This document shows, one piece after another, positions 613 to 16,381 of a DNA stretch of 64,000 nt. A program made the position numbers and the translations under genes. The first letter of the stretch is position 1. Each line of letters begins with the position of its first letter. Source of the DNA: Thermoanaerobaculia bacterium (GTDB lineage: Bacteria; Acidobacteriota; Thermoanaerobaculia; UBA5066). The notes beneath the pieces are model-generated. The model had not been told where the DNA came from, searched no databases, and saw only the letters and a program-made list of their open reading frames with translations. The stretch is from contig CAVRAY010000001.1 in NCBI GenBank assembly GCA_963719225.1, positions 1,504,001 through 1,568,000 on the forward strand, written 5' to 3'.

Positions 613-2022
613 TCAGGGGAAGATTCCGAGCTCCATGTAGCTCACGGCGATCTTGTCGATCGCCGAGATGAACGCCGCGGTGCGGAGATCGGCTTTCGGG
701 TGTTTTTTCTGCACGTCGCGGATCTGCCGCCACGCGACGGACATGGTCTCCTCGAGGCCCGAATTGACGAGATCTTCCTCCTCGGCCCCGTGAATGACGA
801 GCTTGCGCTCGCCCGAGGAGAAGTGCTTGCCGGTCGCCCCTTCGATGGACTTCACCATCTCCTCGGCCCGCATCTCCTCGAAGCGCTTCTCCATGCGCCC
901 GAAGCGCACGTGCGAGAGGTTTTTCAGCCACTCGAAGTACGACACGGTGACGCCGCCCGCGTTCAGGTACATGTCGGGGATGACGCAAACGCCTTTCTGG
1001 CGGAGGATCGCGTCGCCGTCGGCCGTGATCGGGCCGTTCGCGCCCTCGGCGATGATCTTCGCGCGGACCTTGGACGCGTTCGCGGCCGTGATCACGTTCT
1101 CGAGTGCGGCCGGGACGAGGATGTCGCAGTCGAGAAACAGGGCTTCCTCGCCGGGGAGGTCCGCCGCGCCGGGGAAGCCGGTGATCTTCCGCGTCTCGGC
1201 TCGGTGGTTCATGACCTCGGCGACGTCGAGGCCTTTCGGGTTCGCGATCGCGCCTTCCCACTCCAACAGGCCCACGATCACGGCACCGCCCTCCTGGAGA
1301 AAGCGCGCCGCGTGTGACCCGACGTTGCCGAGGCCCTGCACGACGACGCGCTTGCCCGCGAGGCCGCCGGAGAGGCCCAGCGTCTTGAGCAGCGCGGAGT
1401 CCGTGAGCGCCTCCTTGACGCCGAAGAAAACGCCGCGGCCCGTGGCTTCCTTGCGCCCGCGGATGCCGCCCTGGCTGATCGGTTTGCCCGTGACGCAGCC
1501 GATCGCGTCGATCTCGCCGGGGTGGAACTGGGCGTACGTGTCGGCGATCCAGGACATCTCCCGCGGGCCCGTTCCGTAGTCGGGAGCGGGCACGTCGATC
1601 CCGGGCCCGATGAAATTCTTCTTCGTGAGCTCGGCCGTGTAGCGTCGCGTGATGCGCTCGAGTTGTTCGACGGACACCTTTCGCGGGTCGATCTTGATGC
1701 CGCCCTTCGCACCGCCGAAGGGCACGTCCACGATCGCGCATTTGAACGTCATGAGGGCCGCGAGCGCGAGGACCTCGTCTTCGTTCACCTCCGGCGAGTA
1801 CCGGATTCCTCCCTTGACGGGCAGCTTGTGGTGGCTGTGCTCGGCGCGCCAGGCCTCGATGACCTCGTATCCGCCCCCCTCCTTTCGGACGGGGAAACGA
1901 AACTTGTAGATGCTGTTGCAGACCTTGATCTGATCCAGAAGTCCAGGCGGATAGTCGAGAAAGCTCGCGGCGGCGTCGAAATTCCGGTTCACGGTCTCCA
2001 GGAATCCGTTGGCTGCGGTCAT
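613..2022 (-). CDS. Glutamate dehydrogenase (Glu/Leu/Phe/Val family), animal-GDH-like C-terminus
   Basis: [52 protein letters not shown]. Start at MTAANG (2022) has a GGAGG RBS. Confidence 0.93.
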
Positions 2023-2202
2023 CGATCCTCCGAATCCCGAGTGTAGGCGAGGTCCTCGGCGGGGTCGAGGTGATCCATATGACTCATGACGGACGAGGGG
2101 ACGGGCCCCTACGATGTCCATGATGAGCCGGTTGGAGGAGGGCGCCGTGTCCCAGGTCTCCGGCCGGGAACAAAAAGACTGGACAAAAGAGGGAGACTCC
2201 CG

Positions 2203-3486
2203 ATGAAAAGTGCGTTCAATCCGTTCGAAATGGCGCAGGCGCAGTTCGACAAATCCGCGGACATCCTGGGGCTCGACGACGCCTCACGGGAGCTCTTGAG
2301 GTGGCCTCTCCGCGAGTTCCACTTCGCGATTCCGGTGCACATGGACGACGGCCGCGTGAAGGTGTTCCGCGGGTTCCGCGTCCAGCACAACGACGCCCGA
2401 GGCCCGTCCAAGGGAGGAATCCGGTTCCACCCGCAGGAGACGATCGACACGGTTCGGGCGCTCTCGATGTGGATGACCTGGAAGTGCTCGGTCGTGGACA
2501 TCCCGCTCGGCGGGGCGAAAGGCGGCGTCATCTGCGATCCCCACAACCTGAGCGCGCGCGAGCAGGAGCAGATCTGCAGGGGCTGGATCCGGCAGATTTC
2601 GCGGAACGTCGGCTCGGCACTGGACGTACCGGCGCCCGACGTCATGACGACTCCCCAGCACATGCTCTGGATGCTCGACGAGTTCGAGGTGATCCACGGC
2701 GGCAGGGAGCCGGGTTTCATCACCGGAAAGCCGGTGGGGATGGGAGGCTCTCTCGGCCGGACCGAGGCCACGGGCTATGGCCTCGTCTTCGCGCTGCGCG
2801 AGGCGCTCAAGCTCCTCGAGCTCAAGGTCGACAGGACGCTGGCGAGCGTGCAGGGCTTCGGAAACGTGGCGCAGTACGCCATCAAGCTCTACATGAAGCT
2901 GGGAGGGAAGGTCGTCGCCGTCTCCTCGTGGGACCAGGCCGACCAGACTTCCTACTGCTTCCGTAAGGAGACCGGGGTCGATCCCGACGCGCTCCTCGGC
3001 ATCACCGACCGCTTCGGGGGCATCGACAAGGGGAAAGCCGCGAAGCTGGGATACGAGGTCCTTCCGGGCGACGCCTGGATCGAGCAGAACGTCGACATCC
3101 TGATGCCCTCGGCCATCGAAAACCAGGTGACCGCGGAGACGGTGGGGAAGATCAAGGACCGCGTGAAGGTGATCGCCGAAGGCGCGAACGGCCCCACGAC
3201 TCCGGAGGCCGACAAGTGCCTGCAGGCGCGGGGCATCTTCGTCATCCCCGATTTTCTCGCGAATGCCGGCGGCGTCACGTGCAGCTACTTCGAGCAGGTG
3301 CAGAGCAACATGAACTATTTCTGGGAGCAGGACGAGGTTCTCGGGAAGCTCGACGTGAAAATGACTTCGGCTTTTCATGCCGTGGCCGACCTGGCGAAGA
3401 AGCAGAAGCTCTACATGCGGGACGCGGCCTACGTGATCGCCGTGAGCCGTGTCGCGAAGGCCTGTCACGACCGCGGGTGGGTCTGA
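2203..3486 (+). CDS. Glutamate dehydrogenase (Glu/Leu/Phe/Val family)
   Basis: [67 protein letters not shown] at 2203 follows AGAGGGAG. Confidence 0.93.
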
Positions 3487-3503
3487 ACGGCGCCGAGCCG
3501 CCG

Positions 3504-5258
3504 ATGACGAACGCGACAGAGCCGGCGCTTCCGCTCTTCGACCGGAGGCTCTTCGACGGGAAGGAACCCGCGACGCTGATGGGCGAGGGGCCGGTCGGAG
3601 GAAAGGCCGCCGGGTTGATCCGGATCCGCGACACCCTTGCCTCGGCCTTCCCGGGCGACCTGCCGGAGTTCGAAGTCTCGATTCCCACGATGTCCGTGAT
3701 CACGACCGAGCGCTTCGACCGGTTCATGGAAGAGAACGGACTCGGGGAGATTGCTTTTTCGGGCGAGAGCGACGACGCCATCGCCCGCGCCTTCCTGAAG
3801 GGCGATTTTCCCGCCGACCTCGTGGGTGATCTGCGGTCCCTCGCCGATCACATACACGCGCCTCTCGCCGTGCGCTCCTCGAGTCTCCTCGAGGACGCCC
3901 TGAATCGACCCTTCGCCGGCGTGTACGCGACGAAGATGATTCCGAACAACGAGCCAGAGGCGGACGCCCGGTTCCGGAAGCTGGCCGAGGCCGTGAAGCT
4001 GGTATGGGCTTCGACCTACTTCCGGGCTGCGACGGCCTACCGCTCGACGGTCGACGCCGCACTGCGGAAGGAGAAGATGGCGGTGCTTCTGCAGGAGGTC
4101 GTGGGCCGCCGGCACGGAGATCGCTACTACCCCGACATTTCCGGCGTGGCGCGCTCCTACGGCTTCTACCGCTTCGGCTCGGCCCGCCCCGAGGACGGGA
4201 TCGTGCTCCTCGCGCTCGGCCTCGGGAAGACGATCGTGGACGGAGGGGCGTCCTGGACCTACTCTCCCGCCCACCCGCGCGCGCCCGCGCCTTTCGCCTC
4301 GACCTCCGACCTCCTCAAGAGCACGCAGACGGAGTTCTGGGCGGTGAACATGGGCAAGCCCCCGGCCTACGATCCCGTGCGCGAGACGGAATACCTCGTG
4401 AGAGGCTCCATCGTGGACGCAGAAGAGGACGGCACGCTGCAGGCGACCGCCTCCACGTGGAACGCCGCCTCGGAGAGACTCGTGTCCGGAACGGGCACGC
4501 CCGGGCCGCGCGTCCTGAATTTCGCGTCGCTTCTGATCCACGATCAATACCCGCTGAACGACGCGGTCAGATTGCTCCTGTCGGCCTGCGGGAGCGCGGC
4601 CGGCGGGCCGGTCGAGATCGAGTTCGCCGCGACGCTCGAGCCTCGTCGGGAGCCGCCCTTGAGGATCGGTCTTCTCCAGGTGCGCCGCATGGCGGTCTCG
4701 ACGGAGAGCGTCGACGTCGACGCCGCCGCTCGGTCCGGCCTCAGGGTCCTCCTCTCGTCCGACCAGGTCATGGGGAACGGGATCGTCGACGGGATCCGCG
4801 ACGTCGTCTACCTGCGGCCCGATCGCTTCGACGCGCGCCACTCGCGCGCGATCGCGGAGGAGGTCGCCGCGAGAAATCGTGTGCTGCTCGAAGAGGGCAC
4901 TCCGTACATCCTCATCGGGTTCGGACGGTGGGGAAGCGCGGATCCGTGGCTCGGAGTTCCGGTGGCATGGGGAGACGTGGCGGGGGCCAGGGTCCTCGTC
5001 GAGGCGTCACGGCCCGAGCGAGGGATCGAGATGAGTCAGGGTTCGCACTTCTTCCACAACATCTCGAGCTTCGGCGTGAGCTACTTCTCCTTGCCGCCCG
5101 AGGGCGCCGGCACGCTCGACTGGGAGTGGCTGGAAAGCCGGCCCCTCGTCGCCGAGAGTTTCTTCCTCCGCCACGTCCGTGCGGCCGGACCGCTGCGCGT
5201 GGAAGTCGATGGTCGCGCCGGACGTGGGATCATCTGGAGGTGCGACGAGGAGACATGA
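3504..5258 (+). CDS. PEP/pyruvate-binding (PPDK_N ATP-grasp) domain protein with C-terminal GRWGS/SQGSHFF domain
   Basis: GGKAAGL, AVRSSSLLED, FAGVY, MAVLLQEVV, SGVARS, LGLGKTIVDG, VEIEFA, LLQVR. No PEP-utilising TIM barrel. Confidence 0.85.
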   Translation: MTNATEPALPLFDRRLFDGKEPATLMGEGPVGGKAAGLIRIRDTLASAFPGDLPEFEVSIPTMSVITTERFDRFMEENGLGEIAFSGESDDAIARAFLKGDFPADLVGDLRSLADHIHAPLAVRSSSLLEDALNRPFAGVYATKMIPNNEPEADARFRKLAEAVKLVWASTYFRAATAYRSTVDAALRKEKMAVLLQEVVGRRHGDRYYPDISGVARSYGFYRFGSARPEDGIVLLALGLGKTIVDGGASWTYSPAHPRAPAPFASTSDLLKSTQTEFWAVNMGKPPAYDPVRETEYLVRGSIVDAEEDGTLQATASTWNAASERLVSGTGTPGPRVLNFASLLIHDQYPLNDAVRLLLSACGSAAGGPVEIEFAATLEPRREPPLRIGLLQVRRMAVSTESVDVDAAARSGLRVLLSSDQVMGNGIVDGIRDVVYLRPDRFDARHSRAIAEEVAARNRVLLEEGTPYILIGFGRWGSADPWLGVPVAWGDVAGARVLVEASRPERGIEMSQGSHFFHNISSFGVSYFSLPPEGAGTLDWEWLESRPLVAESFFLRHVRAAGPLRVEVDGRAGRGIIWRCDEET

Positions 5259-8200
5259 CCTCACCGGACAGCCCCGTCGACACGATTCTTGACGCCCTGC
5301 AGGAACGCGCCAAGGAGCTCACCTGCATCTACCGGGTGAACGAGATCTGCAATCGGCCGCAGGCCTCGCTCGACGAGATTTTCCGGGACGTCATCGACAT
5401 CCTCCCGCCGGGCTGGCAATACCCGGCCGAGTGCCTGGCGCGGGTCACGGTGGACGGCGTGGTCTACGAGCCGCCGGGTTTGATCGGCACCCCATGGGTT
5501 CAGGTGGCACCGATCCGTGTGCAGGGTCTGGTGATTGGCAGCGTCGAGGTGTTTTACGTGAAGGCGATGCCGGCCTCCGACGAGGGTCCGTTCCTGAAAG
5601 AGGAGAGGAAGCTCATCGACACGGTCGCCGAGCGCCTCGGGCAGCTCCTTCTGCACCGCAAGCTGCTGGACAGGATCCAGGGCCGGCAGGAGGCGTTCGA
5701 AGGCCTCCCGGCGACGCCGCGCGGGAACTGGTGGATCATCATCGACTTCCTGCGCAAGACCGACGAGCACCTCCTGATGAGGGTCTCGCGCCGGATGATC
5801 AACTACCTCTGCTGGAACGGAATTGCCGAGGCACGGGACCTGCTGCCGCACTTCACCGCGGGCCGGAGCGGCGGGCGCGAAGAGAGCGGAGGCGAGAACC
5901 GGCCCCTGGAGCGGCGCGGCATCGACTCTTTGATCAAGGTCGCCGACGAGGTCTTCCGCATCGCTTCCCAGCACCTCGCTTCCGACGAGATCCTCTCGTG
6001 CATTCAGAAGTGGATCAGGGACGAGAAATCGGGCTTTCTGGTCGAGGCGGTCGAGAACCAGGGAACGCCTTTGATGGAGATTGCCCAGGCGCTGGGCCGC
6101 TTTCACAACACGGCCGTCGACGACCACGAGCTGTCGCGCACCGTACAGGTGGAATTGAGGGTCTCGTTGATCCGCCGGTTCCTCACCGATGACCTCGACT
6201 TCCTCGGCACGGCCAAGAACTACATCGACGTGGGCGACTTCTACGAGCTTTCCCGCCGTGTCATCTGTCCCCCCAGGAGCCACGGCAAGCTCGGCGGGAA
6301 GAGTTCGGGCCTGTTTCTGGCGGCCCAGATCGTCCGCAAGTCGCCCGAGTACGCCGACGCGCTCGGACGCATCCGGATCCCGAGAACGTGGTACGTCACG
6401 TCGGACGGAGTTCTGAACTTCATCGAGTTCAATCAGCTTCAGGACGTCTACAATCGGAAGTATCTGGAGATCGAGGAGGTGCGGCGCGAGTACCCGCACA
6501 TCGTCCAGGTCTTCAAGGACTCTCATTTCTCGCCGGAGATCGTCAAGGGCCTGTCCGTCGCGCTCGACGACCTCGACGGACGCCCCCTCATCGTCCGCAG
6601 CTCCAGCCTCCTGGAGGACCGCATCGGGTCGGCGTTCTCCGGCAAATACAAGAGCCTCTTCCTGTCCAATCAAGGCACGAAGAGCGAGCGCCTTAGTGCG
6701 CTGATGGATGCCATCGCCGAGGTTTATGCCTCGATCTTCGGGCCGGATCCCATCGAATACCGCGCCGCGCGCGGGCTCCTGGACGTGCACGAGGAGATGG
6801 GCGTGATGATCCAGGAGGTCGTGGGCAGCCGCGCCGGCAAGTACTTCCTGCCGACGTTCGCGGGGGTCGCCTTCTCCAACAACGAATTCCGATGGTCGGC
6901 GCGGATCAGGCGAGAGGACGGTCTCGTGCGTCTCGTGGCGGGCCTCGGGACGCGCGCCGTGGACCGCCTCGGCGACGACTACCCGGTGCTGATCGCTCCG
7001 GGCCAGCCCGGACTGAGGGTGAACGTCACGCCCGACGAGGTGGTCCGCTACTCGCCGAGGAAGCTGGACGTCATCAACCTGGAGTCGCGGCGTTTCGAGA
7101 CGGTCGCCTTGAAGGATCTCCTCGCGGAGTGCGGCCCGGAGATCCCCGGCGTTCAAAAGATCGTCTCGCTCGCGGATGAAAGCGGAATTCGCCGCCCCCT
7201 CCTGATCGACTGGGCGTCGGACGCGGACCGCCTCGTCGTGACCTTCGACGGGCTCATCGAGTCCACTCCGTTCCTCACCCAGATGCGCGCGCTGCTCCGC
7301 CTTCTGAAGGAGAAGACCGGAGGGCCGGTGGACATCGAATTTGCTTCTGACGGAAAGGACTTCTATCTCCTGCAATGCAGGCCGCAGAGCTTCTCGGAGG
7401 ATGTCGCGTCGGCGCCGATCCCGCAGGACCTGCCGGCCGAGAAGCTGGTCTTCGAGGCGCGGCGCTACGTTTCCAACGGCCGGATGCCGGACATCACCCA
7501 CATCGTCTACGTCGACCCCGAGCGCTACGCGGCGCTCGCAGACGAGGAGGATCTCAGGCGCGTGGGACGGGCCGTCGGCCGGCTCAACAAGGTTCTACCG
7601 AAAAGTCAGTTCATCCTCATGGGCCCGGGCCGCTGGGGCAGCCGCGGCGATGTGAAGCTCGGCGTCCCCGTCACCTACTCCGACATCAACAACACCGCTG
7701 CCCTCATCGAGATCGCACGGAAGAGGGGGAACTACGTCCCGGACGTCTCCTTCGGCACGCACTTCTTTCAGGATCTCGTCGAAGCCTCCATCCGCTACCT
7801 CCCGCTTTTTCCCGACGATCCCGACATCGCCTTCCACGAGAAGTTCCTGCGGGAGTCCCCCGATATCCTGGCGGACGTCGCGCCGGAGTTTGCGGACCTG
7901 GCGGGAGTCGTGCGTGTCATCGACGTGCCGCGCGCCACGGGAGGCCTCGTCCTGCGCGTTCTGCTGAACGCGGACCAGGACCGTGCGGTCGGCTTCCTGT
8001 CGAGTCCCGGGGTCGGAGCCGACACGTCGGTGGAAAGGAAGCGCCTCCCGGAGCCGGCGCCGCCGGAGGACCACTCGCCCTGGCGTCTGCGGATGGCCGA
8101 GCGCATCGCGGCGGTGGCCGACGTCGCGCGTTTCGGCATCAAGGGGCTCTATCTCTTCGGCAGCACGAAAAACGGCACGGCGTCGCCCGGCAGCGACATC

Positions 8201-8446
8201 AATCTCCTCGTCCACTTCTGCGGCACTCCGGAAATGCGCAGCGATCTGCTGGCCTGGCTTGAAGGCTGGAGCCTGTGCCTGTCCGAGATGAACTACCTGC
8301 GCAGCGGCGTCGCGACCTCGGGCCTGCTGGACGTCCACGTCGTGACGGACGCGGAGATCGAAAGCGCCTCGGGTTACGCCGCGAAGATCGGTGCCGTCAC
8401 GGACGCGGCGCGGTCCCTGACCCTTGGAACGAAGGCTTCAGAATGA
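5255..8446 (+). CDS. GAF-like + PPDK_N ATP-grasp + SFGTHFF domain + C-terminal nucleotidyltransferase-fold protein
   Basis: ATGA overlap with the previous stop. LQERAKELTCIY...FLKEERKLI N-terminal domain; LGGKSSGL, IVRSSSLLED, FSGKY, DIEFA, LLQCRP; GPGRWGS, SFGTHFF; C-terminal LYLFGS...SDINLLV. Confidence 0.85.
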   Translation: MTSPDSPVDTILDALQERAKELTCIYRVNEICNRPQASLDEIFRDVIDILPPGWQYPAECLARVTVDGVVYEPPGLIGTPWVQVAPIRVQGLVIGSVEVFYVKAMPASDEGPFLKEERKLIDTVAERLGQLLLHRKLLDRIQGRQEAFEGLPATPRGNWWIIIDFLRKTDEHLLMRVSRRMINYLCWNGIAEARDLLPHFTAGRSGGREESGGENRPLERRGIDSLIKVADEVFRIASQHLASDEILSCIQKWIRDEKSGFLVEAVENQGTPLMEIAQALGRFHNTAVDDHELSRTVQVELRVSLIRRFLTDDLDFLGTAKNYIDVGDFYELSRRVICPPRSHGKLGGKSSGLFLAAQIVRKSPEYADALGRIRIPRTWYVTSDGVLNFIEFNQLQDVYNRKYLEIEEVRREYPHIVQVFKDSHFSPEIVKGLSVALDDLDGRPLIVRSSSLLEDRIGSAFSGKYKSLFLSNQGTKSERLSALMDAIAEVYASIFGPDPIEYRAARGLLDVHEEMGVMIQEVVGSRAGKYFLPTFAGVAFSNNEFRWSARIRREDGLVRLVAGLGTRAVDRLGDDYPVLIAPGQPGLRVNVTPDEVVRYSPRKLDVINLESRRFETVALKDLLAECGPEIPGVQKIVSLADESGIRRPLLIDWASDADRLVVTFDGLIESTPFLTQMRALLRLLKEKTGGPVDIEFASDGKDFYLLQCRPQSFSEDVASAPIPQDLPAEKLVFEARRYVSNGRMPDITHIVYVDPERYAALADEEDLRRVGRAVGRLNKVLPKSQFILMGPGRWGSRGDVKLGVPVTYSDINNTAALIEIARKRGNYVPDVSFGTHFFQDLVEASIRYLPLFPDDPDIAFHEKFLRESPDILADVAPEFADLAGVVRVIDVPRATGGLVLRVLLNADQDRAVGFLSSPGVGADTSVERKRLPEPAPPEDHSPWRLRMAERIAAVADVARFGIKGLYLFGSTKNGTASPGSDINLLVHFCGTPEMRSDLLAWLEGWSLCLSEMNYLRSGVATSGLLDVHVVTDAEIESASGYAAKIGAVTDAARSLTLGTKASE

Positions 8447-11396
8447 CTCCCTCGTTCCTGCGGCCGTTCATCTTGATGAGGACGGGGCGCTCGAACGTCA
8501 GGTGCCTCACGCACGACTTCGCGCTCGCGACCGCCTGCGCCGAGAGCCAGTCCCAGTCGACGAAGCCGTCTCCGAGCTCCGGGTTGACGGTGAAGTAGCC
8601 CGTGTCGTTCGCGGTGAGGTTCTGGAAGAAATGAGTGCCCTGTGAGGGCGTCACGCGGAAGTCCTTGAAGCCGGTCTCGACGATGACGCGCGCGCCGGAG
8701 ATCTGGTCCCACGTGACCGGAATTCCGAGGAACGGGTCCGCCGACCCCCAGCGACCCACTCCGATGAGGACATAGGGAGTTCCCCGGCTGGAAAGGTGCG
8801 CGTTGAAGGCGGCGACCTCGTCCGCCGCGACACGGCTTTTCGAACGGTCGAAGCGGTCGTAATCGACGACGACGAGGTCGCGGACGTCTTCGATGCGGCC
8901 GTTCCCGAGAACAGTCGCGCTCTGACAGACGAGGTCCTCGCGCGCGACGTCGCCGATCTGGAGCTCGGTCAGCTCCCTCGAGAGAGCCAGCGGCCGGAGC
9001 TGCAGGAAGCCGAACTCCTTCAGCGCGCTCTCCGGCTTCAGGAGGTCGACGGCGAACTCGATCTCCACCGGGGCTCCCGTGCCGCGCGTCGCGACCCGGA
9101 GCAGCGCGGCCAGGATCTCGGCCAGCGGGAAGGTCTCGTGCTTGAGGATCGGAGCGAACGTGACGAGGCGGATGCCGGGGCGCGAGATGCCGTCGTAAAC
9201 GGCTTCGTTTTCCGGGGAGTACGTGGAGGCCACGAGAGCCAGCGTCCCATCCTCTTCGGCCGCCTCGAGGCCGTGGCGCTCGAGCACGAACTCGTGGAGG
9301 GCGGGCCGCGCCTGCGAGTTCTCGAGGTCCAGGGCGAAGAACTCCCGCTGCGAATTCTGACGGATGTCCTCGACGGACGAGAACTGCACGAGGTGGCGGG
9401 GGTATTTCGGGCAGAACCTCACGCAGGCCTCGCCGTCCACGACGCTTTCCCCGAAGCCGAGGGCGACGGCCGCGATGCCGTCCTCCGTCCGGATGGGCGA
9501 CGACGGATAGAAGTTGTGCGACCGCGCCACGCCCGAGAGGGACGGGTAGAAGCGACCGCCGTGCGAGGCCCCCACGATCCGCTGGAGGACGACGGCCATC
9601 TTTTCCTCTTCGAGACGGTAGGGAGTAGCGTCCAGATAGGACTTCGCGCGATGGGAGAACGTGGAGGCGTAGACCCGCTTGATGGCCGCGAGGAGCTGGG
9701 AGAGGCGGATCGCGCGGCTGCCGTGGTTGTTCGGCAGCATGTACGTCTCGTAGACGCCGGCGAAGGGCTGGTACTGCGAGTCCTCGAGAAGGCTCGAGGA
9801 GCGCACGGCGATCGGGTAAGGAACAGCCCTGAGGTACGTATCCAGGTCCTGCGCGGTCTCCTCGGGGAACGCGGCCGCGTGGAAGCGCCGGCGGATGGCC
9901 GTGTCGTCGTCCGTCTCGATCGCGAAGTCTCGCAGGCCGTTCTCGTCGAGGAACCGGTCGAAGAGGTCCGAGCCGAGCACGACGGCGGAGGGAACGGAGA
10001 TGTTGACGTTCTGAAAGCGGCTTCGGACCCGGTCGTCGTCCAGGAGCACGTTGACGAACGCGAGGCCGCGCGCCTTGCCGCCGAGGGACCCGCCGCCGAG
10101 GCGCCAGAATCCCGGCGAGCCGTCGAACGTGGCACGGTCGAAATCGGCCACGATGCGCCGGCCACGTTGCGTGCGGTACTCCTGGATCGAGCGGATCAGC
10201 TCCCGCCTCAGGTTCTCCAGGCCGCCGAAGTCGGCGACCGTGCGCGGCCGGAGGCTGTGGGCGAGAGCGAACTCGGTGCGGGCCTTCAGCCAGGTCGAGA
10301 AGTGGTTTCGCTCGCCGTGATAGGCGAGGCAAGAGGCGGGAACGGTGTGGAGCATCTCCTCCAGCGCCTTCAGGTCGTGCGCCCGCCCCACCTCGGTGCC
10401 GTCGGGCAGGCGGAACAGAAAATCGCCGAAGCCGAAGTTCTCGACCATGAAATGCCGGAGCTGCTGGAGGAGGACGGGCGAGCCCTTCAGGTGAAAGGTG
10501 GCGCCGACCTCTTTCGCGAGCGCCGCGTTCTCCTGGCGGCTGGACTGGAGCATGAACGGAATGTCGGGCTGCTCCTCGCGCACCCGTCGCGCGAGCTCCA
10601 CGCCGGCCAACGGGGTGAGCGTCCCGCCCCGCGGGAACTCGATGTCGGAGATGATTCCCAGGACGTTCTCCCGGTAGGTCTCGAAGAGGTCCCAGGCCTC
10701 CTCGAAGGTGCGGCAGAGAACGATCTTGGGCCGCGCCTTGAGCCGCATGAGCTTGTGCGAGAGGTTGATTCCCTCCGGCGCGAGGTTGTGCGACTGCTTG
10801 ATCACCTCGGTGTAGAGCACCGGCAGGAACGAGGAGGCGAAGGGCACGCTGTCCTCGACGAGGATGATCGCCTGAACTCCCTTCACGCCCGTGTCGTGCG
10901 CGAGGTTCATGCGGTCCTCGACCAACTTCACGATCGCCAGGAGGATCCGCACGTCGCCCCGCCAGAGGTAGATCCCGTCGAGGGCGGAGACGTCGTGCCG
11001 CTCGAGGAGGAGGGCGAGCTCGCGGTGGTCGTAGGCGAGGACGACGACGTGGGCTTTCACGCCGGCCTCCTTGAGCCGGCGCGCGAGCGCCGGGGCGTCC
11101 ATGTCGCCCACGTGGAGGGACGTGATGACGAGGTTGAAGCGGGGCTCCGCGCGCGCCCTCTCGAGCGCCTCCTCGCCCGTGGAGACGCGGGTGATGCCCG
11201 GAACGTGCCGGAGGTTCAGCTCGAGAGATTCGGAAAGGATCCGCTCGTTCAGCTGGCCGTCCTCGGCCAGGATGAAGTAATCGTAGAGGCTCGAGACGAG
11301 CAGGATGTCCTGGACCCGGTACTGCATCAGGTCGTGGAACCCGCCCCACGGACTCTCCGAGCGGAGGGACGGGCCGTCCGGGCCTCGTTCGGACAT
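8397..11396 (-). CDS. Tandem receiver (REC)-like domains + PPDK_N ATP-grasp + SQGTHFF domain protein
   Basis: ILLVSS.../IILVEDS...GIISDIEFP...LQSS...LKGS receiver-like motifs; LGGKARGL, AVRSSSLLED, FAGVY, VEIEFA, FLQLRP; GVGRWGS, SQGTHFF. Start MSERG follows GGGGAG. Confidence 0.85.
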   Translation of the reverse strand: MSERGPDGPSLRSESPWGGFHDLMQYRVQDILLVSSLYDYFILAEDGQLNERILSESLELNLRHVPGITRVSTGEEALERARAEPRFNLVITSLHVGDMDAPALARRLKEAGVKAHVVVLAYDHRELALLLERHDVSALDGIYLWRGDVRILLAIVKLVEDRMNLAHDTGVKGVQAIILVEDSVPFASSFLPVLYTEVIKQSHNLAPEGINLSHKLMRLKARPKIVLCRTFEEAWDLFETYRENVLGIISDIEFPRGGTLTPLAGVELARRVREEQPDIPFMLQSSRQENAALAKEVGATFHLKGSPVLLQQLRHFMVENFGFGDFLFRLPDGTEVGRAHDLKALEEMLHTVPASCLAYHGERNHFSTWLKARTEFALAHSLRPRTVADFGGLENLRRELIRSIQEYRTQRGRRIVADFDRATFDGSPGFWRLGGGSLGGKARGLAFVNVLLDDDRVRSRFQNVNISVPSAVVLGSDLFDRFLDENGLRDFAIETDDDTAIRRRFHAAAFPEETAQDLDTYLRAVPYPIAVRSSSLLEDSQYQPFAGVYETYMLPNNHGSRAIRLSQLLAAIKRVYASTFSHRAKSYLDATPYRLEEEKMAVVLQRIVGASHGGRFYPSLSGVARSHNFYPSSPIRTEDGIAAVALGFGESVVDGEACVRFCPKYPRHLVQFSSVEDIRQNSQREFFALDLENSQARPALHEFVLERHGLEAAEEDGTLALVASTYSPENEAVYDGISRPGIRLVTFAPILKHETFPLAEILAALLRVATRGTGAPVEIEFAVDLLKPESALKEFGFLQLRPLALSRELTELQIGDVAREDLVCQSATVLGNGRIEDVRDLVVVDYDRFDRSKSRVAADEVAAFNAHLSSRGTPYVLIGVGRWGSADPFLGIPVTWDQISGARVIVETGFKDFRVTPSQGTHFFQNLTANDTGYFTVNPELGDGFVDWDWLSAQAVASAKSCVRHLTFERPVLIKMNGRRNEGVILKPSFQGSGTAPRP

Positions 11397-11457
11397 CGAT
11401 GACTCCCCGGGAAGCGGCGTGAAGGAAGAATCCTCCACGCCGCCTCCGGGGCCTAGG

Positions 11458-12894
11458 TTAGACGAGTCCCTGGTCGATCATCGAGTCGGCGACCTTGATG
11501 AAGCCGGCGATGTTCGCCCCGTTGACGTAGTTGCCGGGCGTCCCGAACTTCTCGGCCGTCTCACGGCAGGCCGCGTGGATCGACTTCATGATGAGATGCA
11601 GCCGGTTGTCCACTTCCTCGCGAGTCCACGAGAGGCGCATGCTGTTCTGCGACATCTCCAGCCCCGAGGTCGCGACGCCGCCCGCATTGGCGGCCTTTCC
11701 GGGCCCGTAGAGAATACCGGCGTCGAGGAAGACCTTCACGCCGTCGAGCGTCGTCGGCATGTTGGCGCCCTCGGCCACTGCGTAGACGCCGCCCCTCAGG
11801 AGGTGGGCCGCGTCGAAGCCGTTGATCTCGTTCTGCGTTGCGCTCGGGAAGGCGCACTGCGCCTTGTGGGCCCAGAGCGGGTTGTGGTCGAGCTTCGGGT
11901 TCACCGGCGTGAAGACGACGCCCTTGTACTTGTCGGCGTACTCCTTGATGCGGCCGCGCCGGACGTTCTTGAGGTCCATCACGAAGGCCAGCTTCTCGGC
12001 CGTGATTCCCGCCTCGTCGTAGATGTAGCCCTCCGAGTCGGAGAGAGTCACGGGCTTCGCCTTGAGCTGCAGGAGCTTCTCGACCGTGTACTGCGAGACG
12101 TTGCCGCTGCCCGAGACGAGACAGGTCTTGCCTTCCAGCGTCTGACCCCTCGTCGCGAGCATCTCGGACGCGAAGTAGACGGCGCCGTAGCCGGTGGCTT
12201 CCGGGCGGATCAGCGAGCCGCCCCAGGAGAGGCCCTTGCCCGTCAGGACGCCGGAGAACTCGTTCCGGAGCCGCTTGTACTGGCCGAACAGGAAGCCGAT
12301 CTCGCGCCCGCCCACGCCGATGTCACCGGCCGGAACGTCGGTGTCGGGTCCGATGTGGCGGAACAGCTCCGTCATGAAGCTCTGGCAGAAGCGCATGACC
12401 TCGCCGTCGCTCTTGCCCTTCGGGTCGAAGTCGGAACCACCCTTGGCGCCGCCCATCGGCAGCGTCGTCAAGGAGTTCTTGAGGACCTGCTCGAAGGCCA
12501 GGAACTTCAGGATTCCCAGGTTGACCGAGGGGTGGAAGCGGAGCCCTCCCTTGTAGGGCCCGATGGCGCTGTTCATCTGGATCCGGAAGCCCCTGTTGAT
12601 TCTGTAGGTCCCCTGGTCGTCCTGCCACGGAACCCGGAACATGAGGACGCGCTCGGGCTCGATGATGCGCTCCAGGACCTTCGCGCTCCGGTACTCCGGC
12701 CGCTGCTCGAGGACGAGCTGAAGCGAGTCTGCAACCTCCTCGACGGCCTGGTGGAACTCGGGTTCGGCCGGATTCTTGGCCTTGACCTCGGCCATCAGGT
12801 TCTTCACATACACGGATTTGGATCCTCCCGTGGGACGCCCCGGCTTTTTCCCGACCTCGACCTCGGCATCGAGGGTCTTGACACTTTCTGACAT
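11458..12894 (-). CDS. gdhA: NADP-specific glutamate dehydrogenase
   Basis: EPEFHQAV, GPYKGGLRFHPSVNLGILKFLAFEQ, KNSLTTLPMGGAKGGSDFDPKGKS, GSLIRPEATGYG, SGSGNV, PGKAANAGGVATSGLEMSQN; AGGAGG RBS. Confidence 0.95.
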   Translation of the reverse strand: MSESVKTLDAEVEVGKKPGRPTGGSKSVYVKNLMAEVKAKNPAEPEFHQAVEEVADSLQLVLEQRPEYRSAKVLERIIEPERVLMFRVPWQDDQGTYRINRGFRIQMNSAIGPYKGGLRFHPSVNLGILKFLAFEQVLKNSLTTLPMGGAKGGSDFDPKGKSDGEVMRFCQSFMTELFRHIGPDTDVPAGDIGVGGREIGFLFGQYKRLRNEFSGVLTGKGLSWGGSLIRPEATGYGAVYFASEMLATRGQTLEGKTCLVSGSGNVSQYTVEKLLQLKAKPVTLSDSEGYIYDEAGITAEKLAFVMDLKNVRRGRIKEYADKYKGVVFTPVNPKLDHNPLWAHKAQCAFPSATQNEINGFDAAHLLRGGVYAVAEGANMPTTLDGVKVFLDAGILYGPGKAANAGGVATSGLEMSQNSMRLSWTREEVDNRLHLIMKSIHAACRETAEKFGTPGNYVNGANIAGFIKVADSMIDQGLV

Positions 12895-13220: not shown

Positions 13221-16200
13221 ATGAAACTGCGTTCCCGTCTCGGATTTCCGTTCGCCTTTGTCTCGATGGCGGCCCTCCTTTTATCGGCCGCCCCGGCGCC
13301 CGGCCAGGAGACCACCGGCGGCCTTCAGGGCGCCGTGACCATGAAGTCCGACAAGAGCCCCCTCCCCGGCGTGACGGTGGAGGCCGTTCACGTCCCCACC
13401 GGCACGCGGTTCACGTCCGTGACCACGTCCACTGGACGGTTCACGATCCTCAACGTCCGCGTGGGCGGCCCCTACACGGTGACCGCGAAGATCGCGGGCT
13501 TCAAGACGGAGACTCTCAGGGACATCGACGTCGCCCTCGGGGAAAAGCGCGATCTCGAATTCGAGCTGGAAGTCCAGGCGAGGGCGGAGACCGTCAGCGT
13601 CACGGCCGAAGCGGAGCCGCTCATCAGCCCGAACCGGATGGGCTCCACGCAGTCGGTCTCGCAGAACGAGATCAAGTCGCTGCCGACGATCAGCCGGCAG
13701 TTCCAGGACTTCGTGAGGACGAACCCGTACGCCAACGTGCAGCCCTACGATTCGACGCAGACGGCCATCTCCATCGCGGGGATGAACAACCGGTACAACA
13801 CGATCCAGATCGACGGCGCCGTCAACAACGACCTGTTCGGCCTCGCCGCGACCGGCACGCCGGGCGGCCAGACGAACACGCAGCCCATCTCGCTCGACAC
13901 GATCCAGGAGATCCAGGTCGCCGTCTCGCCCTACGACATCAAGCAGGGCGGGTTCACGGGCGGCGCTATCAACGCGATCACGAAGAGCGGAACGAACGAC
14001 TTCCACGGCTCCGTCTACGGCTCGACGCGGGACGAGAAGTACGTCAGCAGCGACGTCCCGCAGGCCTACGGCGACGCGCTCCACAAGCCGATCGCGACGT
14101 TCGACTCGGACCAGTACGGCGCCCGCGTGGGCGGACCGATCCTGAGGGACAAGCTCTTCTTCTTCGGGAGCGTCGAGCGGAACAAGCTTTCGCAGCCGAC
14201 GGGCGGCTCCGCCGACGGATCCACGAGCAACTCGTACAAGGACCCGGCACAGGCAGCGCTCTTCAAGAGCGTGCTCACCACCAAGTACGGCTACGACCCG
14301 GGCGGCCTCGGGGACTACAACCAGAGGACGAACAGCGACCTGCTGCTCGGTAAGCTCGACTTCAACGCGGCCGCGAGCCACCAGCTCTCGCTCCGGTACA
14401 ACTACGTCGACGCCCTGACCGACACTCTGGGTTCGAGCCGCAGCTTCAACGCCTACGCGTTCGAGGGGGCCGGCTACACGTTCGCCAACAAGACGAACTC
14501 GGGAGTGCTGCAGCTCAACAGTGTCTTCGGCACGAGCTCGTTCAACCAGGGCCGCGTCGGCTACCAGACCATTCGTGACAGCCGGCAGGTGCCCGCGGCG
14601 TTCCCGTCGGTTTACATCTGTGCGACTCCCAACTCGTTCTGCACCGGGTCCAACGCGTACCAGCTGGTCGCCGGGACCGAGCGCTCGTCCGGGGCGAACG
14701 CGCTCAACCAGGACATCTTCGAGGTCACGGACGACTTCACGGTGATCAAGGGCAACCACACGCTAACGATCGGGACGCACAACGAGTTCTTCAAGTTCGA
14801 GAACCTCTTCATCCAGGACATCACCGGGACGTACTTCTTCAACAGCGTCGACGCGCCCGGCGACGCCCACAGCCTCAATAGCGGAAACGCCGCCCGATAC
14901 CAGGTCAAGTTCGCGAACGGGGCCGATCCGCGCCGCCCGACCCAATTCGCCGCCCAGCAGTGGGGTCTCTACGCGGGCGACCAATGGAGAGTCAACGAAA
15001 AGCTCACGCTGACCCTCGGCGTGAGGTTCGATCTCCCGCGGCTCACGGACCAGCCGACGTACAACCCGCTCGTCGACACCACGTTCGGGATCGATACGAC
15101 CGACGTCCCGACCAACAACCTCATGTTCTCGCCTCGCCTCGGCTTCAACTTCAACCCGACCGGTGGCGGCAGGGACCAGATCCGCGGGGGCATCGGCGTC
15201 TTCGCGGGCCGCACACCGTTCGTCTGGATCTCCAACGCCTACGGCGGCACCGGCATCGAGATCACGGGCCTGAGCGCGAGCAACGTCCCCTTCAACGCGG
15301 ATCCCAACAACCCGCCCAAGAACTTCCCCCCGGGACGGCCGCCGTCTCGGTCGACACCGTCGATCCCGATTTCAAGTTCCCCCAGGTTCTTCGCAGCACC
15401 CTGGCGTACGACCGGGAGCTCCCGTACGGGATCCGAGGTACGGTCGAGTTCATGTTCACGAAGACGCTGAAGGACGTCTTCTATTACAACAGGAACAAGG
15501 TCCCGAGCGGGGCCACGACGTTCTACGGATCGCCTGTCTACAAGAACTTCAATTCCGGGTTCTCGAACGTCACGTTCCTGACGAACACGACCCGGGGCGA
15601 GCAGCAGAACCTCAACGTGATGCTCGAGAAGCGCTTCCCCTTCGGCCTCTACGTCAACGGGTCGTACGCCTACATGAACGCGAAGTCCGCGTTCGAGGCG
15701 ACGTCCAGCGTGGCGTTCTCGAACTGGCAGTTCCAGACGACGGACGGCAACATCGATACCCAGCAGCTCACGCGCTCCTTCTTCGACGTGCCGCATCGCT
15801 TCAACATCGTTCTGACGCAGGCGTTCAAGACGGGGCCTCTGCTCCACAACGTCGGGCTGGTCTACTTCGCTCAGTCGGGGCAGCCCTATTCGATCCTGAT
15901 GGGGGGAGACCCGAACAGCGACGGTGGCTTCAGCAACGACCAGATTTTCGTTCCCCAGAACTACAGCGACGTCGTCTGGGCCGGAGCGGGAGCTCCCACC
16001 GAAGACAAGTGGAACACGTTCCTCGCGACGACGGGTCTCGACAAATACAGGGGCCGGGTCGCGCCGCGCAACGCGCTCAGCGCCCCCTGGATCCACACCC
16101 TGGACTTCCACTACGACATCACGCTGCCCATCTCGGTCGTCCAGGTCCAGCTCACGTTCGACGTCTTGAACCTGATCAACCTGATCGACAGCAACTCGGG

Positions 16201-16381
16201 ACTCCTCCGTTACGTCAACTTCCAGACGTACACGGCGCTCACCGCCTCCAAAACCGTCGACGCGGCGGGCAGGCCGACCTACACGGTCAACTCGGGCGCG
16301 CTCGACGAGGGGCGGCAGTACAGCACGAACGACCTCCGCTCGCGCTACCAGCTGAAGTGGGGAGCGCGCCTTTCCTTCTAG
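13221..16381 (+). pseudogene. Oar-like TonB-dependent receptor with N-terminal carboxypeptidase-regulatory-like domain, frameshifted at a C6 run (15326-15331)
   Basis: Signal peptide, GGPYTV, IDGAVNNDLFG, GGAINAITKSGTN, SPRLGF in frame 1; barrel strands and terminal ...WGARLSF in frame 2. One extra C gives NFPPGTAAVSVD and joins the two ORFs. Confidence 0.85.

Follow-up and report, generated by a model that had tools for sequence, protein, structure and literature searches.

The DNA considered here is a 64,000-nucleotide (nt) stretch of the genome of a Thermoanaerobaculia bacterium (positions 1,504,001 to 1,568,000 of contig CAVRAY010000001.1, assembly GCA_963719225.1), which we call the window and number from its first letter. 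Near its start, three genes for glutamate dehydrogenase (GDH) bracket three genes for proteins that share an ATP-grasp domain of the PPDK_N type, here named A, B and C. These three proteins belong to a family that is real, widespread and unnamed, whose genes lie beside gdh genes and whose paralogues co-occur with particular GDH clades.

Three glutamate dehydrogenases bracket three ATP-grasp proteins

GDH2 (2203-3486, + strand), a family-II enzyme, is followed after 17 nt by the gene for protein A (3504-5258, +; 584 amino acids), a sensor-less ATP-grasp protein with a predicted swivelling histidine domain (His515). Protein B (5255-8446, +; 1063 amino acids), whose gene overlaps that of A in the sequence ATGA, has a GAF-like, putative input region (residues ~8-140), a helical region, the ATP-grasp, a predicted histidine swivel (His836) and a nucleotidyltransferase tail with DxN in place of DxD. 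Facing them, the NADP-specific gdhA (GDH3, 11458-12894, -) is separated by 61 nt from protein C (8397-11396, -; 999 amino acids), which consists of a pseudo-receiver, a canonical receiver, a DUF5752-like helical domain, the ATP-grasp and a predicted histidine swivel (His922); the genes for B and C run towards each other and overlap by 50 nt. The C-terminal 183 residues of C (8427-8975, -) carry the motifs GRWGS and S.G[ST]HFF and form a predicted swivelling beta/beta/alpha phospho-histidine domain common to A and B. GDH1 (613-2022, -), an animal-type enzyme, adjoins the cluster and probably lies outside its core. An earlier, sequence-only reading of this DNA had drawn the same map of three GDHs and three PPDK_N proteins, and its coordinates and 50-nt overlap hold. 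Gene spacing suggests that GDH2-A-B and gdhA-C are operons. Promoter and terminator scans of the locus gave no promoter and signals at chance level, and a search of sequencing runs, with shares of 0.21 at most, gave no sign of expression or habitat.

The three GDHs are only 31-32% identical to one another, and a fourth is located elsewhere in the genome. GDH3 alone passed an NCBIfam cut-off (PRK09414, NADP-GDH; 742 bits against 536), GDH2 resembles archaeal and firmicute family-II GDHs, and the nearest solved structures to GDH1 are those of mammalian GLUD1 (479 bits; next group 326). Since a cofactor class is assigned for GDH3 and not for GDH2, a switch between NADP-assimilatory and NAD-catabolic enzymes, as suggested in the sequence-only reading, is unproven. 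The GDH2 clade has a six-residue insertion at the cofactor-binding loop, SSWDQ(A/G)DQ, that is absent from the other GDH2-like rows compared. A tree of GDH2-like proteins (15 near-identical rows omitted) had a long-branched outgroup and left unsettled whether the family-linked members form a clade.

GDH1 is thus a bacterial GDH closest to animal GLUD1, and by eye it has a short insert at the position of the animal antenna. Some relatives that lack the family have genes of its type, and other relatives have them elsewhere in the genome; of 12 relative loci retrieved, three had GDH1 adjacent, completing the six-gene layout. GDH1 is therefore likely to be a bystander uncoupled from the family, and we rejected the three-GDH core that had been proposed from the sequence.

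An ATP-grasp core without a pyruvate barrel

Proteins A, B and C all match Pfam PPDK_N (PF01326; E 4e-32, 6e-53 and 8e-38, respectively) and retain the motifs GGK, RSSSLLED, (D/E)IEFA and LQxR, and none of them matches PEP-utilizers or PEP-utilizers_C at E 0.1. In this respect the first reading, of ATP-grasp motifs kept and the phosphoenolpyruvate (PEP) barrel absent, was correct. Five nucleotide-binding residues of C (K441, R532, E778, E780 and Q799) show no variation across all 73 rows. In rifampin phosphotransferase (RPH), Lys22 and Arg117, which we matched to family residues by motif, are required (PMC4844700). The predicted model of full-length C, built from 73 sequences (predicted local distance difference test, pLDDT, 89; predicted template modelling score, pTM, 0.84), contains two receiver folds, the helical domain and the ATP-grasp. 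RPH was the best structural match to this ATP-grasp (Z 26.4, root-mean-square deviation 2.7, 284 residues aligned), with HpeI at Z 19.5 and PPDK at Z 12.9; sequence searches of the PDB with the family proteins gave nothing significant.

Database records name such proteins 'pyruvate, water dikinase' or 'PEP/pyruvate-binding domain-containing protein', labels by which they would be PEP synthases or pyruvate dikinases. The C-terminal domain of about 180 residues, however, directly follows the LQxR motif of the ATP-grasp with no acceptor domain between, and only 69 residues in A and 77 in C lie beyond its histidine (in B, the nucleotidyltransferase tail follows), compared with 439 in the genome's own PPDK; there is thus neither a barrel nor an acceptor domain. 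The proteins score 30-51 bits with the NCBIfam PEP synthase model, far under its cut-off of 740, and this genome already has a complete PPDK elsewhere, as do 57 of 61 Bacteroidales genomes. We therefore rejected the identity given by the labels, which we find scarcely credible, as had the sequence-only reading.

The regions outside this core resemble signalling modules to differing degrees. Pfam assigns receiver domains and DUF5752 to C and a nucleotidyltransferase tail to B. The second receiver of C is conserved at E181 (73/73), D182 (67/73), D251 (72/73), S/T285 (73/73; S285 in C) and K304 (72/73), and the first is degenerate, without phospho-acceptor residues. The N-terminus of B lies at Atlas 0.86-0.89 to GAF clusters with no Pfam match; this part of the previously described add-ons is a lead only, the receivers and the nucleotidyltransferase being confirmed. 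This module is also part of a histidine kinase (L164) and of a second Bacteroidales paralogue. The nucleotidyltransferase motif, DxN here, is DxD in 11 and DxN in 8 of 19 rows (some rows representing the same gene), and most of the distant relatives have DxD. In the phylum to which a Desulfobacterales genome belongs, the N-terminus of family members is instead KaiC-like, also a lead only (Atlas 0.80-0.83). Two C-type proteins (P0040 and P0049) appear to be fusions, with an NB-ARC/TPR protein or with methylmalonyl-CoA mutase; these are single records and may be read-through artefacts.

A predicted phospho-histidine arm

The C-terminal domain is likely to be a phospho-histidine arm, judging from its predicted structure, and had escaped the sequence-only reading. 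Modelled alone, the domain of C (121 sequences, pLDDT 92.7) found phospho-histidine/PEP-utiliser swivel domains as six of its seven best VIA matches, among them pyruvate kinase 475-583 (Z 7.0, root-mean-square deviation 2.9, 107 aligned), RPH 756-867 (Z 6.8), PPDK 384-512 (Z 6.7, twice) and Enzyme I (Z 5.8 and 5.6). The top Foldseek row was likewise PPDK, at E 0.011, and Foldseek returned nothing for this domain at E 0.001. The GR.G and S.G[ST]HF motifs are invariant, and, next to the histidine, G-R-W-G varies little or not at all. That histidine, invariant in 121 of 121 sequences, is placed at a helix start after G-S/T and between two strands, as is the TSH of PPDK, which strengthens the assignment. 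Because the Z values are middling and the profiles blank, the swivel remains a prediction; the domain is probably a divergent homologue of the phospho-histidine swivel.

With such an arm, the architecture would be sensor, ATP-grasp and histidine arm, as in VadK (Rv1127c), a mycobacterial histidine autokinase derived from PPDK that binds methylcitrate-cycle enzymes (PMC13400623).

The family is linked to gdh genes across phyla

We estimate that GTDB contains ~19,000 stretches with the family, and the histidine-arm profile gathered 2542 clusters at 50% identity. Members were present in 56 of 61 Bacteroidales genomes, in 42 of 80 drawn from the phylum of the window, and in 12 of 61 from the phylum that includes a Desulfobacterales genome. 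Scoring a family gene as linked if a GDH gene lay within 8 kb, we found linkage in 58 of the 80 best GTDB loci, which had been selected for similarity to C within 3 of the 64 parts of the collection. In an even draw from the window's phylum, which gave 77 family genes in 42 genomes, 63 genes (in 37 genomes) were linked where 0.7 were expected, and in Bacteroidales 31 of 84 (24 of 56 genomes) where 0.76 were expected; in a third draw, gdh lay within 1.5 kb in 7 of 15 loci. Canonical PPDK served as a control and was linked in 1 of 57 cases in the same Bacteroidales genomes. A lack of enrichment next to gdh, which the sequence-only reading had named as refuting its proposal, is clearly contradicted by the three larger samples. 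Shadow frames aside, GDH was the only family that recurred in more than nine of the 80 loci.

The linkage is retained through varied gene orders and orientations (head-to-tail, divergent and convergent), involves more than one GDH clade and is seen on each of the family's two deep branches. Two loci (L058 and L090) contain tandem gdhA-C-gdhA-C repeats, and records from Parabacteroides and Phocaeicola show gdh, a divergent family gene, three or four further genes and a convergent gdh. That gdhA heads the C operon was rejected as a rule, since gdhA lies upstream of gdh2 in five relatives and the Bacteroidales arrangements are divergent or convergent. A relative of the same genus (L160:4163-16175) has the layout gdhA-globin-gdh2-A-B><C, with a single-domain globin within the cluster. 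In Ignavibacteria and others, a third type of GDH, in which TDKP replaces the usual TGKP among other substitutions, lies downstream of C (L049, L054, L058, L064, L065, L072, L075, L085, L089, L090 and L106).

Such neighbourhoods could in principle be a relic of history, the family having hitch-hiked beside gdh with no functional link to it. Gene order is shared among kin, and linkage in Bacteroidales is incomplete, as hitch-hiking would allow. Persistence of the linkage through different orientations, orders, GDH clades and deep branches, together with the unlinked PPDK control, makes this explanation very unlikely.

Paralogues co-occur with separate GDH clades

A FastTree phylogeny of 151 rows resolved a B branch and a C branch, with A as a sensor-less offshoot of the latter; the nearest named relatives are Acidobacteriota. 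A precedes B wherever it is found whole, and A-B fusions of 1523-1655 amino acids account for 18 of the 120 longer homologues listed.

We compared by eye the gene content of 40 relatives, 22 of them negative genomes. B and a GDH2-clade gene (at least 78% identity) were found in the same 18 genomes, and C with A and GdhA in the same 11; seven relatives had only GDH2, with a B lacking the nucleotidyltransferase tail. Presence and absence thus agreed in 40 of 40 relatives for both pairs. When two unpublished negative genomes (G025 and G030) were left out, the agreement was 38 of 38, and it held also in G033, where the two cognate pairs are 1.16 Mb apart. This paralogue-specific co-occurrence fits control of separate isoenzymes, with B the likely cognate of GDH2 and C the likely cognate of GdhA.

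Other neighbours and a possible phosphorelay

Members of the family that are not linked to gdh were found among GOGAT, GS and NrpR genes. Those with KaiC-like N-termini lie inside GOGAT/GS/NrpR/ANTAR nitrogen clusters (L163:4161-17113, L164:5736-13922, L165 and L166), one of them flanked by two NrpR genes. A Bacteroidales locus (L169:6314-13099) has an A-B pair with no gdh nearby, followed by a convergent metallophosphoesterase that is a candidate phosphatase. Beside C in nine of the 80 loci, mostly from Terriglobia (L032, L035, L039, L040 and five more), stand a GltD-like flavoprotein and a DHODB-like, NAD-binding partner, a pair that we take to be NfnAB/SudAB-like and that is the most recurrent neighbour after GDH.

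The regulators in some of these neighbourhoods, along with the intact phospho-acceptor residues of the second receiver of C (D251 and K304, each in 72 of 73 rows), raise a different possibility, a phosphorelay in which the phospho-histidine would pass its phosphate to a receiver aspartate, either Asp251 of C or that of a separate regulator, and so control transcription of gdh and other nitrogen genes. NarL-type regulators occur in 6 of the 80 loci, NrpR and sigma-54 activators stand beside Desulfobacterota-type members, and the histidine kinase that shares the N-terminal module of B would be at home in such a relay. Regulators are not conserved across the 80 loci, however, and there is none in the cluster of the window; A and B have no receiver, and none of A, B and C has a DNA-binding domain. 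On balance we think a relay unlikely.

Beyond the cluster in the window, an Oar-type TonB-dependent receptor gene (13221-16381, +) is broken in two near 15330, where a frameshift coincides with a short run of G; this may be a sequencing error or mark a pseudogene.

A probable Bacteroides member and the 2-oxoglutarate node

In Bacteroides (B. fragilis), GDH is reversibly inactivated on ammonium shifts. A 1996 paper by Baggio and Morrison, to go by its title, reportedly describes an effect on B. thetaiotaomicron GDH activity of trans-acting gene(s) located downstream of gdhA. By locus tag, a probable B. thetaiotaomicron member of the family, BT1972, lies between two GDH genes. Its cofitness with korA and korB, its only listed partners, is 0.82 (PMC8121099 Table S3), which ties it to the 2-oxoglutarate node and suggests a net effect favouring the supply of 2-oxoglutarate and glutamate for biosynthesis. 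BT1972 is absent from the main text of both PMC8121099 and PMC5552732. A homologue search from a Phocaeicola member returned near-identical copies, and the B. thetaiotaomicron protein was not among the matches.

The korAB partners would also suit an account in which the regulated enzyme is another one at the 2-oxoglutarate node, such as KorAB, or in which the family are small-molecule dikinases, acting on a metabolite held in the GRWG pocket or using GDH as the acceptor subunit. RPH and HpeI, the nearest folds, are small-molecule dikinases, and the near-invariant G-R-W-G beside the histidine is absent from the arm of PPDK. Yet an acceptor domain is lacking in cis, as is a conserved gene for an acceptor subunit across the 80 loci, swappable signalling N-termini are typical of regulators, and the pairing of paralogues with GDH clades would be unexpected for a free metabolite. 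This account, too, we think unlikely.

A proposed mechanism

We propose, at about an even chance of being right, that A, B and C are sensor-gated kinases that phosphorylate themselves at the histidine and set the activity of their cognate GDH by direct contact. The mechanism would start from the ATP-grasp core, with its conserved nucleotide-binding residues, and from the predicted swivel domain bearing the invariant histidine. By analogy with the chemistry of PEP synthase, RPH and VadK, ATP would phosphorylate the histidine, probably with the beta-phosphate, releasing AMP and inorganic phosphate. The interchangeable N-termini (a receiver pair, GAF-like, KaiC-like or none) would serve as inputs, and A and B may act as one unit with two ATP-grasps. 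GDH is the presumed target because the proteins have no acceptor domain of their own and no other neighbour is strongly conserved; output could be phosphoryl transfer to GDH or VadK-like binding that depends on the phospho-state, and we hold these two about equally probable. Linkage to gdh and paralogue-specific co-occurrence lend support to what the sequence-only reading had supposed, a sensing or phosphotransfer module tied to GDH. In a bolder form, possible rather than probable, the dikinases would covalently phosphorylate GDH through the phospho-histidine arm, each paralogue with its own GDH clade and sensor, forming an isoenzyme switch in anaerobes that include gut Bacteroidales, with an A-B heteromer coupling two GDH modules.

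Several observations weigh against control of GDH by phosphorylated histidine arms. No gdh lay within 8 kb of 53 of the 84 Bacteroidales genes or in 22 of the 80 GTDB loci, many of which are on short contigs. Co-loss may stem from physical linkage, and kin are not independent, such that the co-occurrence in 40 relatives represents a handful of events; the correlation of C and GdhA distances is modest (rho 0.36) and expected from shared descent. BT1972 was not listed as cofit (at least 0.8) with gdhA BT1970 or with BT1973 (PMC8121099 Table S3), and its membership is read from annotation and from position and layout. As to the arm, its agreement with swivel domains is middling, at Z < 8, a DRTGG domain scores equally well with Z 6.8, hhalign of the histidine-arm alignment against the central domain of the genome's PPDK gave a probability of 0.3%, and the C-terminal domain has no Pfam match and no PDB sequence match to support it.

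GDH stands at the junction of carbon and nitrogen metabolism, and a common family labelled PEP synthase misleads metabolic models. If the family controls GDH, it would put a name to the 'trans-acting gene(s) downstream of gdhA' of the 1996 title and would suggest by what mechanism ammonium shifts reversibly inactivate Bacteroides GDH. The locus in the window unites two cognate pairs, B-GDH2 and C-GdhA, so that specificity is testable by crossing the pairs.

Relation to known systems

Full-text literature searches, which did not extend to most subscription papers or to bioRxiv supplements, turned up no description of the family. Proteins already known to regulate GDH include GltAB with GudB in Bacillus, GarA in actinobacteria and AprTh in Thermus. 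As in the reading proposed here, these place GDH under post-translational control by a partner protein; their folds, however, are unrelated, and none is known to use dikinase chemistry.

Among dikinases, the two-component systems (for example HpeHI, with the HpeI ATP-grasp subunit, PDB 9goj, and phenylphosphate synthase) resemble the family in having a stand-alone ATP-grasp and an acceptor site from a partner, whereas the family carries its predicted histidine arm on the ATP-grasp protein itself and has no conserved neighbouring gene for an acceptor subunit unless it is that for GDH. PEP synthase and PPDK share PPDK_N, the nucleotide-binding motifs and, by prediction, a swivel arm with its histidine at a helix start; the family lacks their C-terminal PEP/pyruvate TIM barrel, has S.G[ST]HFF where they have GGxTSHAA, and has an extra GRWGS insertion. 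RPH (RPH-Lm, PDB 5hv1; PMC4844700) provides the best match to the ATP-grasp and likewise has a C-terminal histidine swivel, predicted in the family, but the family is without the rifamycin-binding acceptor domain between the two, and the RPH model scores 17-39 bits on A, B and C against a cut-off of ~1000.

VadK, compared here by its description, is alike in combining ATP binding with a phospho-histidine domain, predicted in our case, in the absence of the pyruvate barrel, and, on the proposed reading, would be alike also in regulating a central metabolic enzyme by contact. It differs in deriving from PPDK, while the family core is nearer to RPH and HpeI (Z 26.4 and 19.5, compared with 12.9 for PPDK). 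The family further has receiver, GAF-like, KaiC-like or nucleotidyltransferase add-ons, a tie to GDH and a histidine arm too divergent for Pfam; the available part of the VadK paper (PMC13400623) mentions neither glutamate dehydrogenase nor receivers. By membership tests the family is neither VadK, PEP synthase, PPDK nor RPH, yet it would work most like VadK, and if the proposed reading is true it would be the second dikinase turned regulator after VadK, independently evolved.

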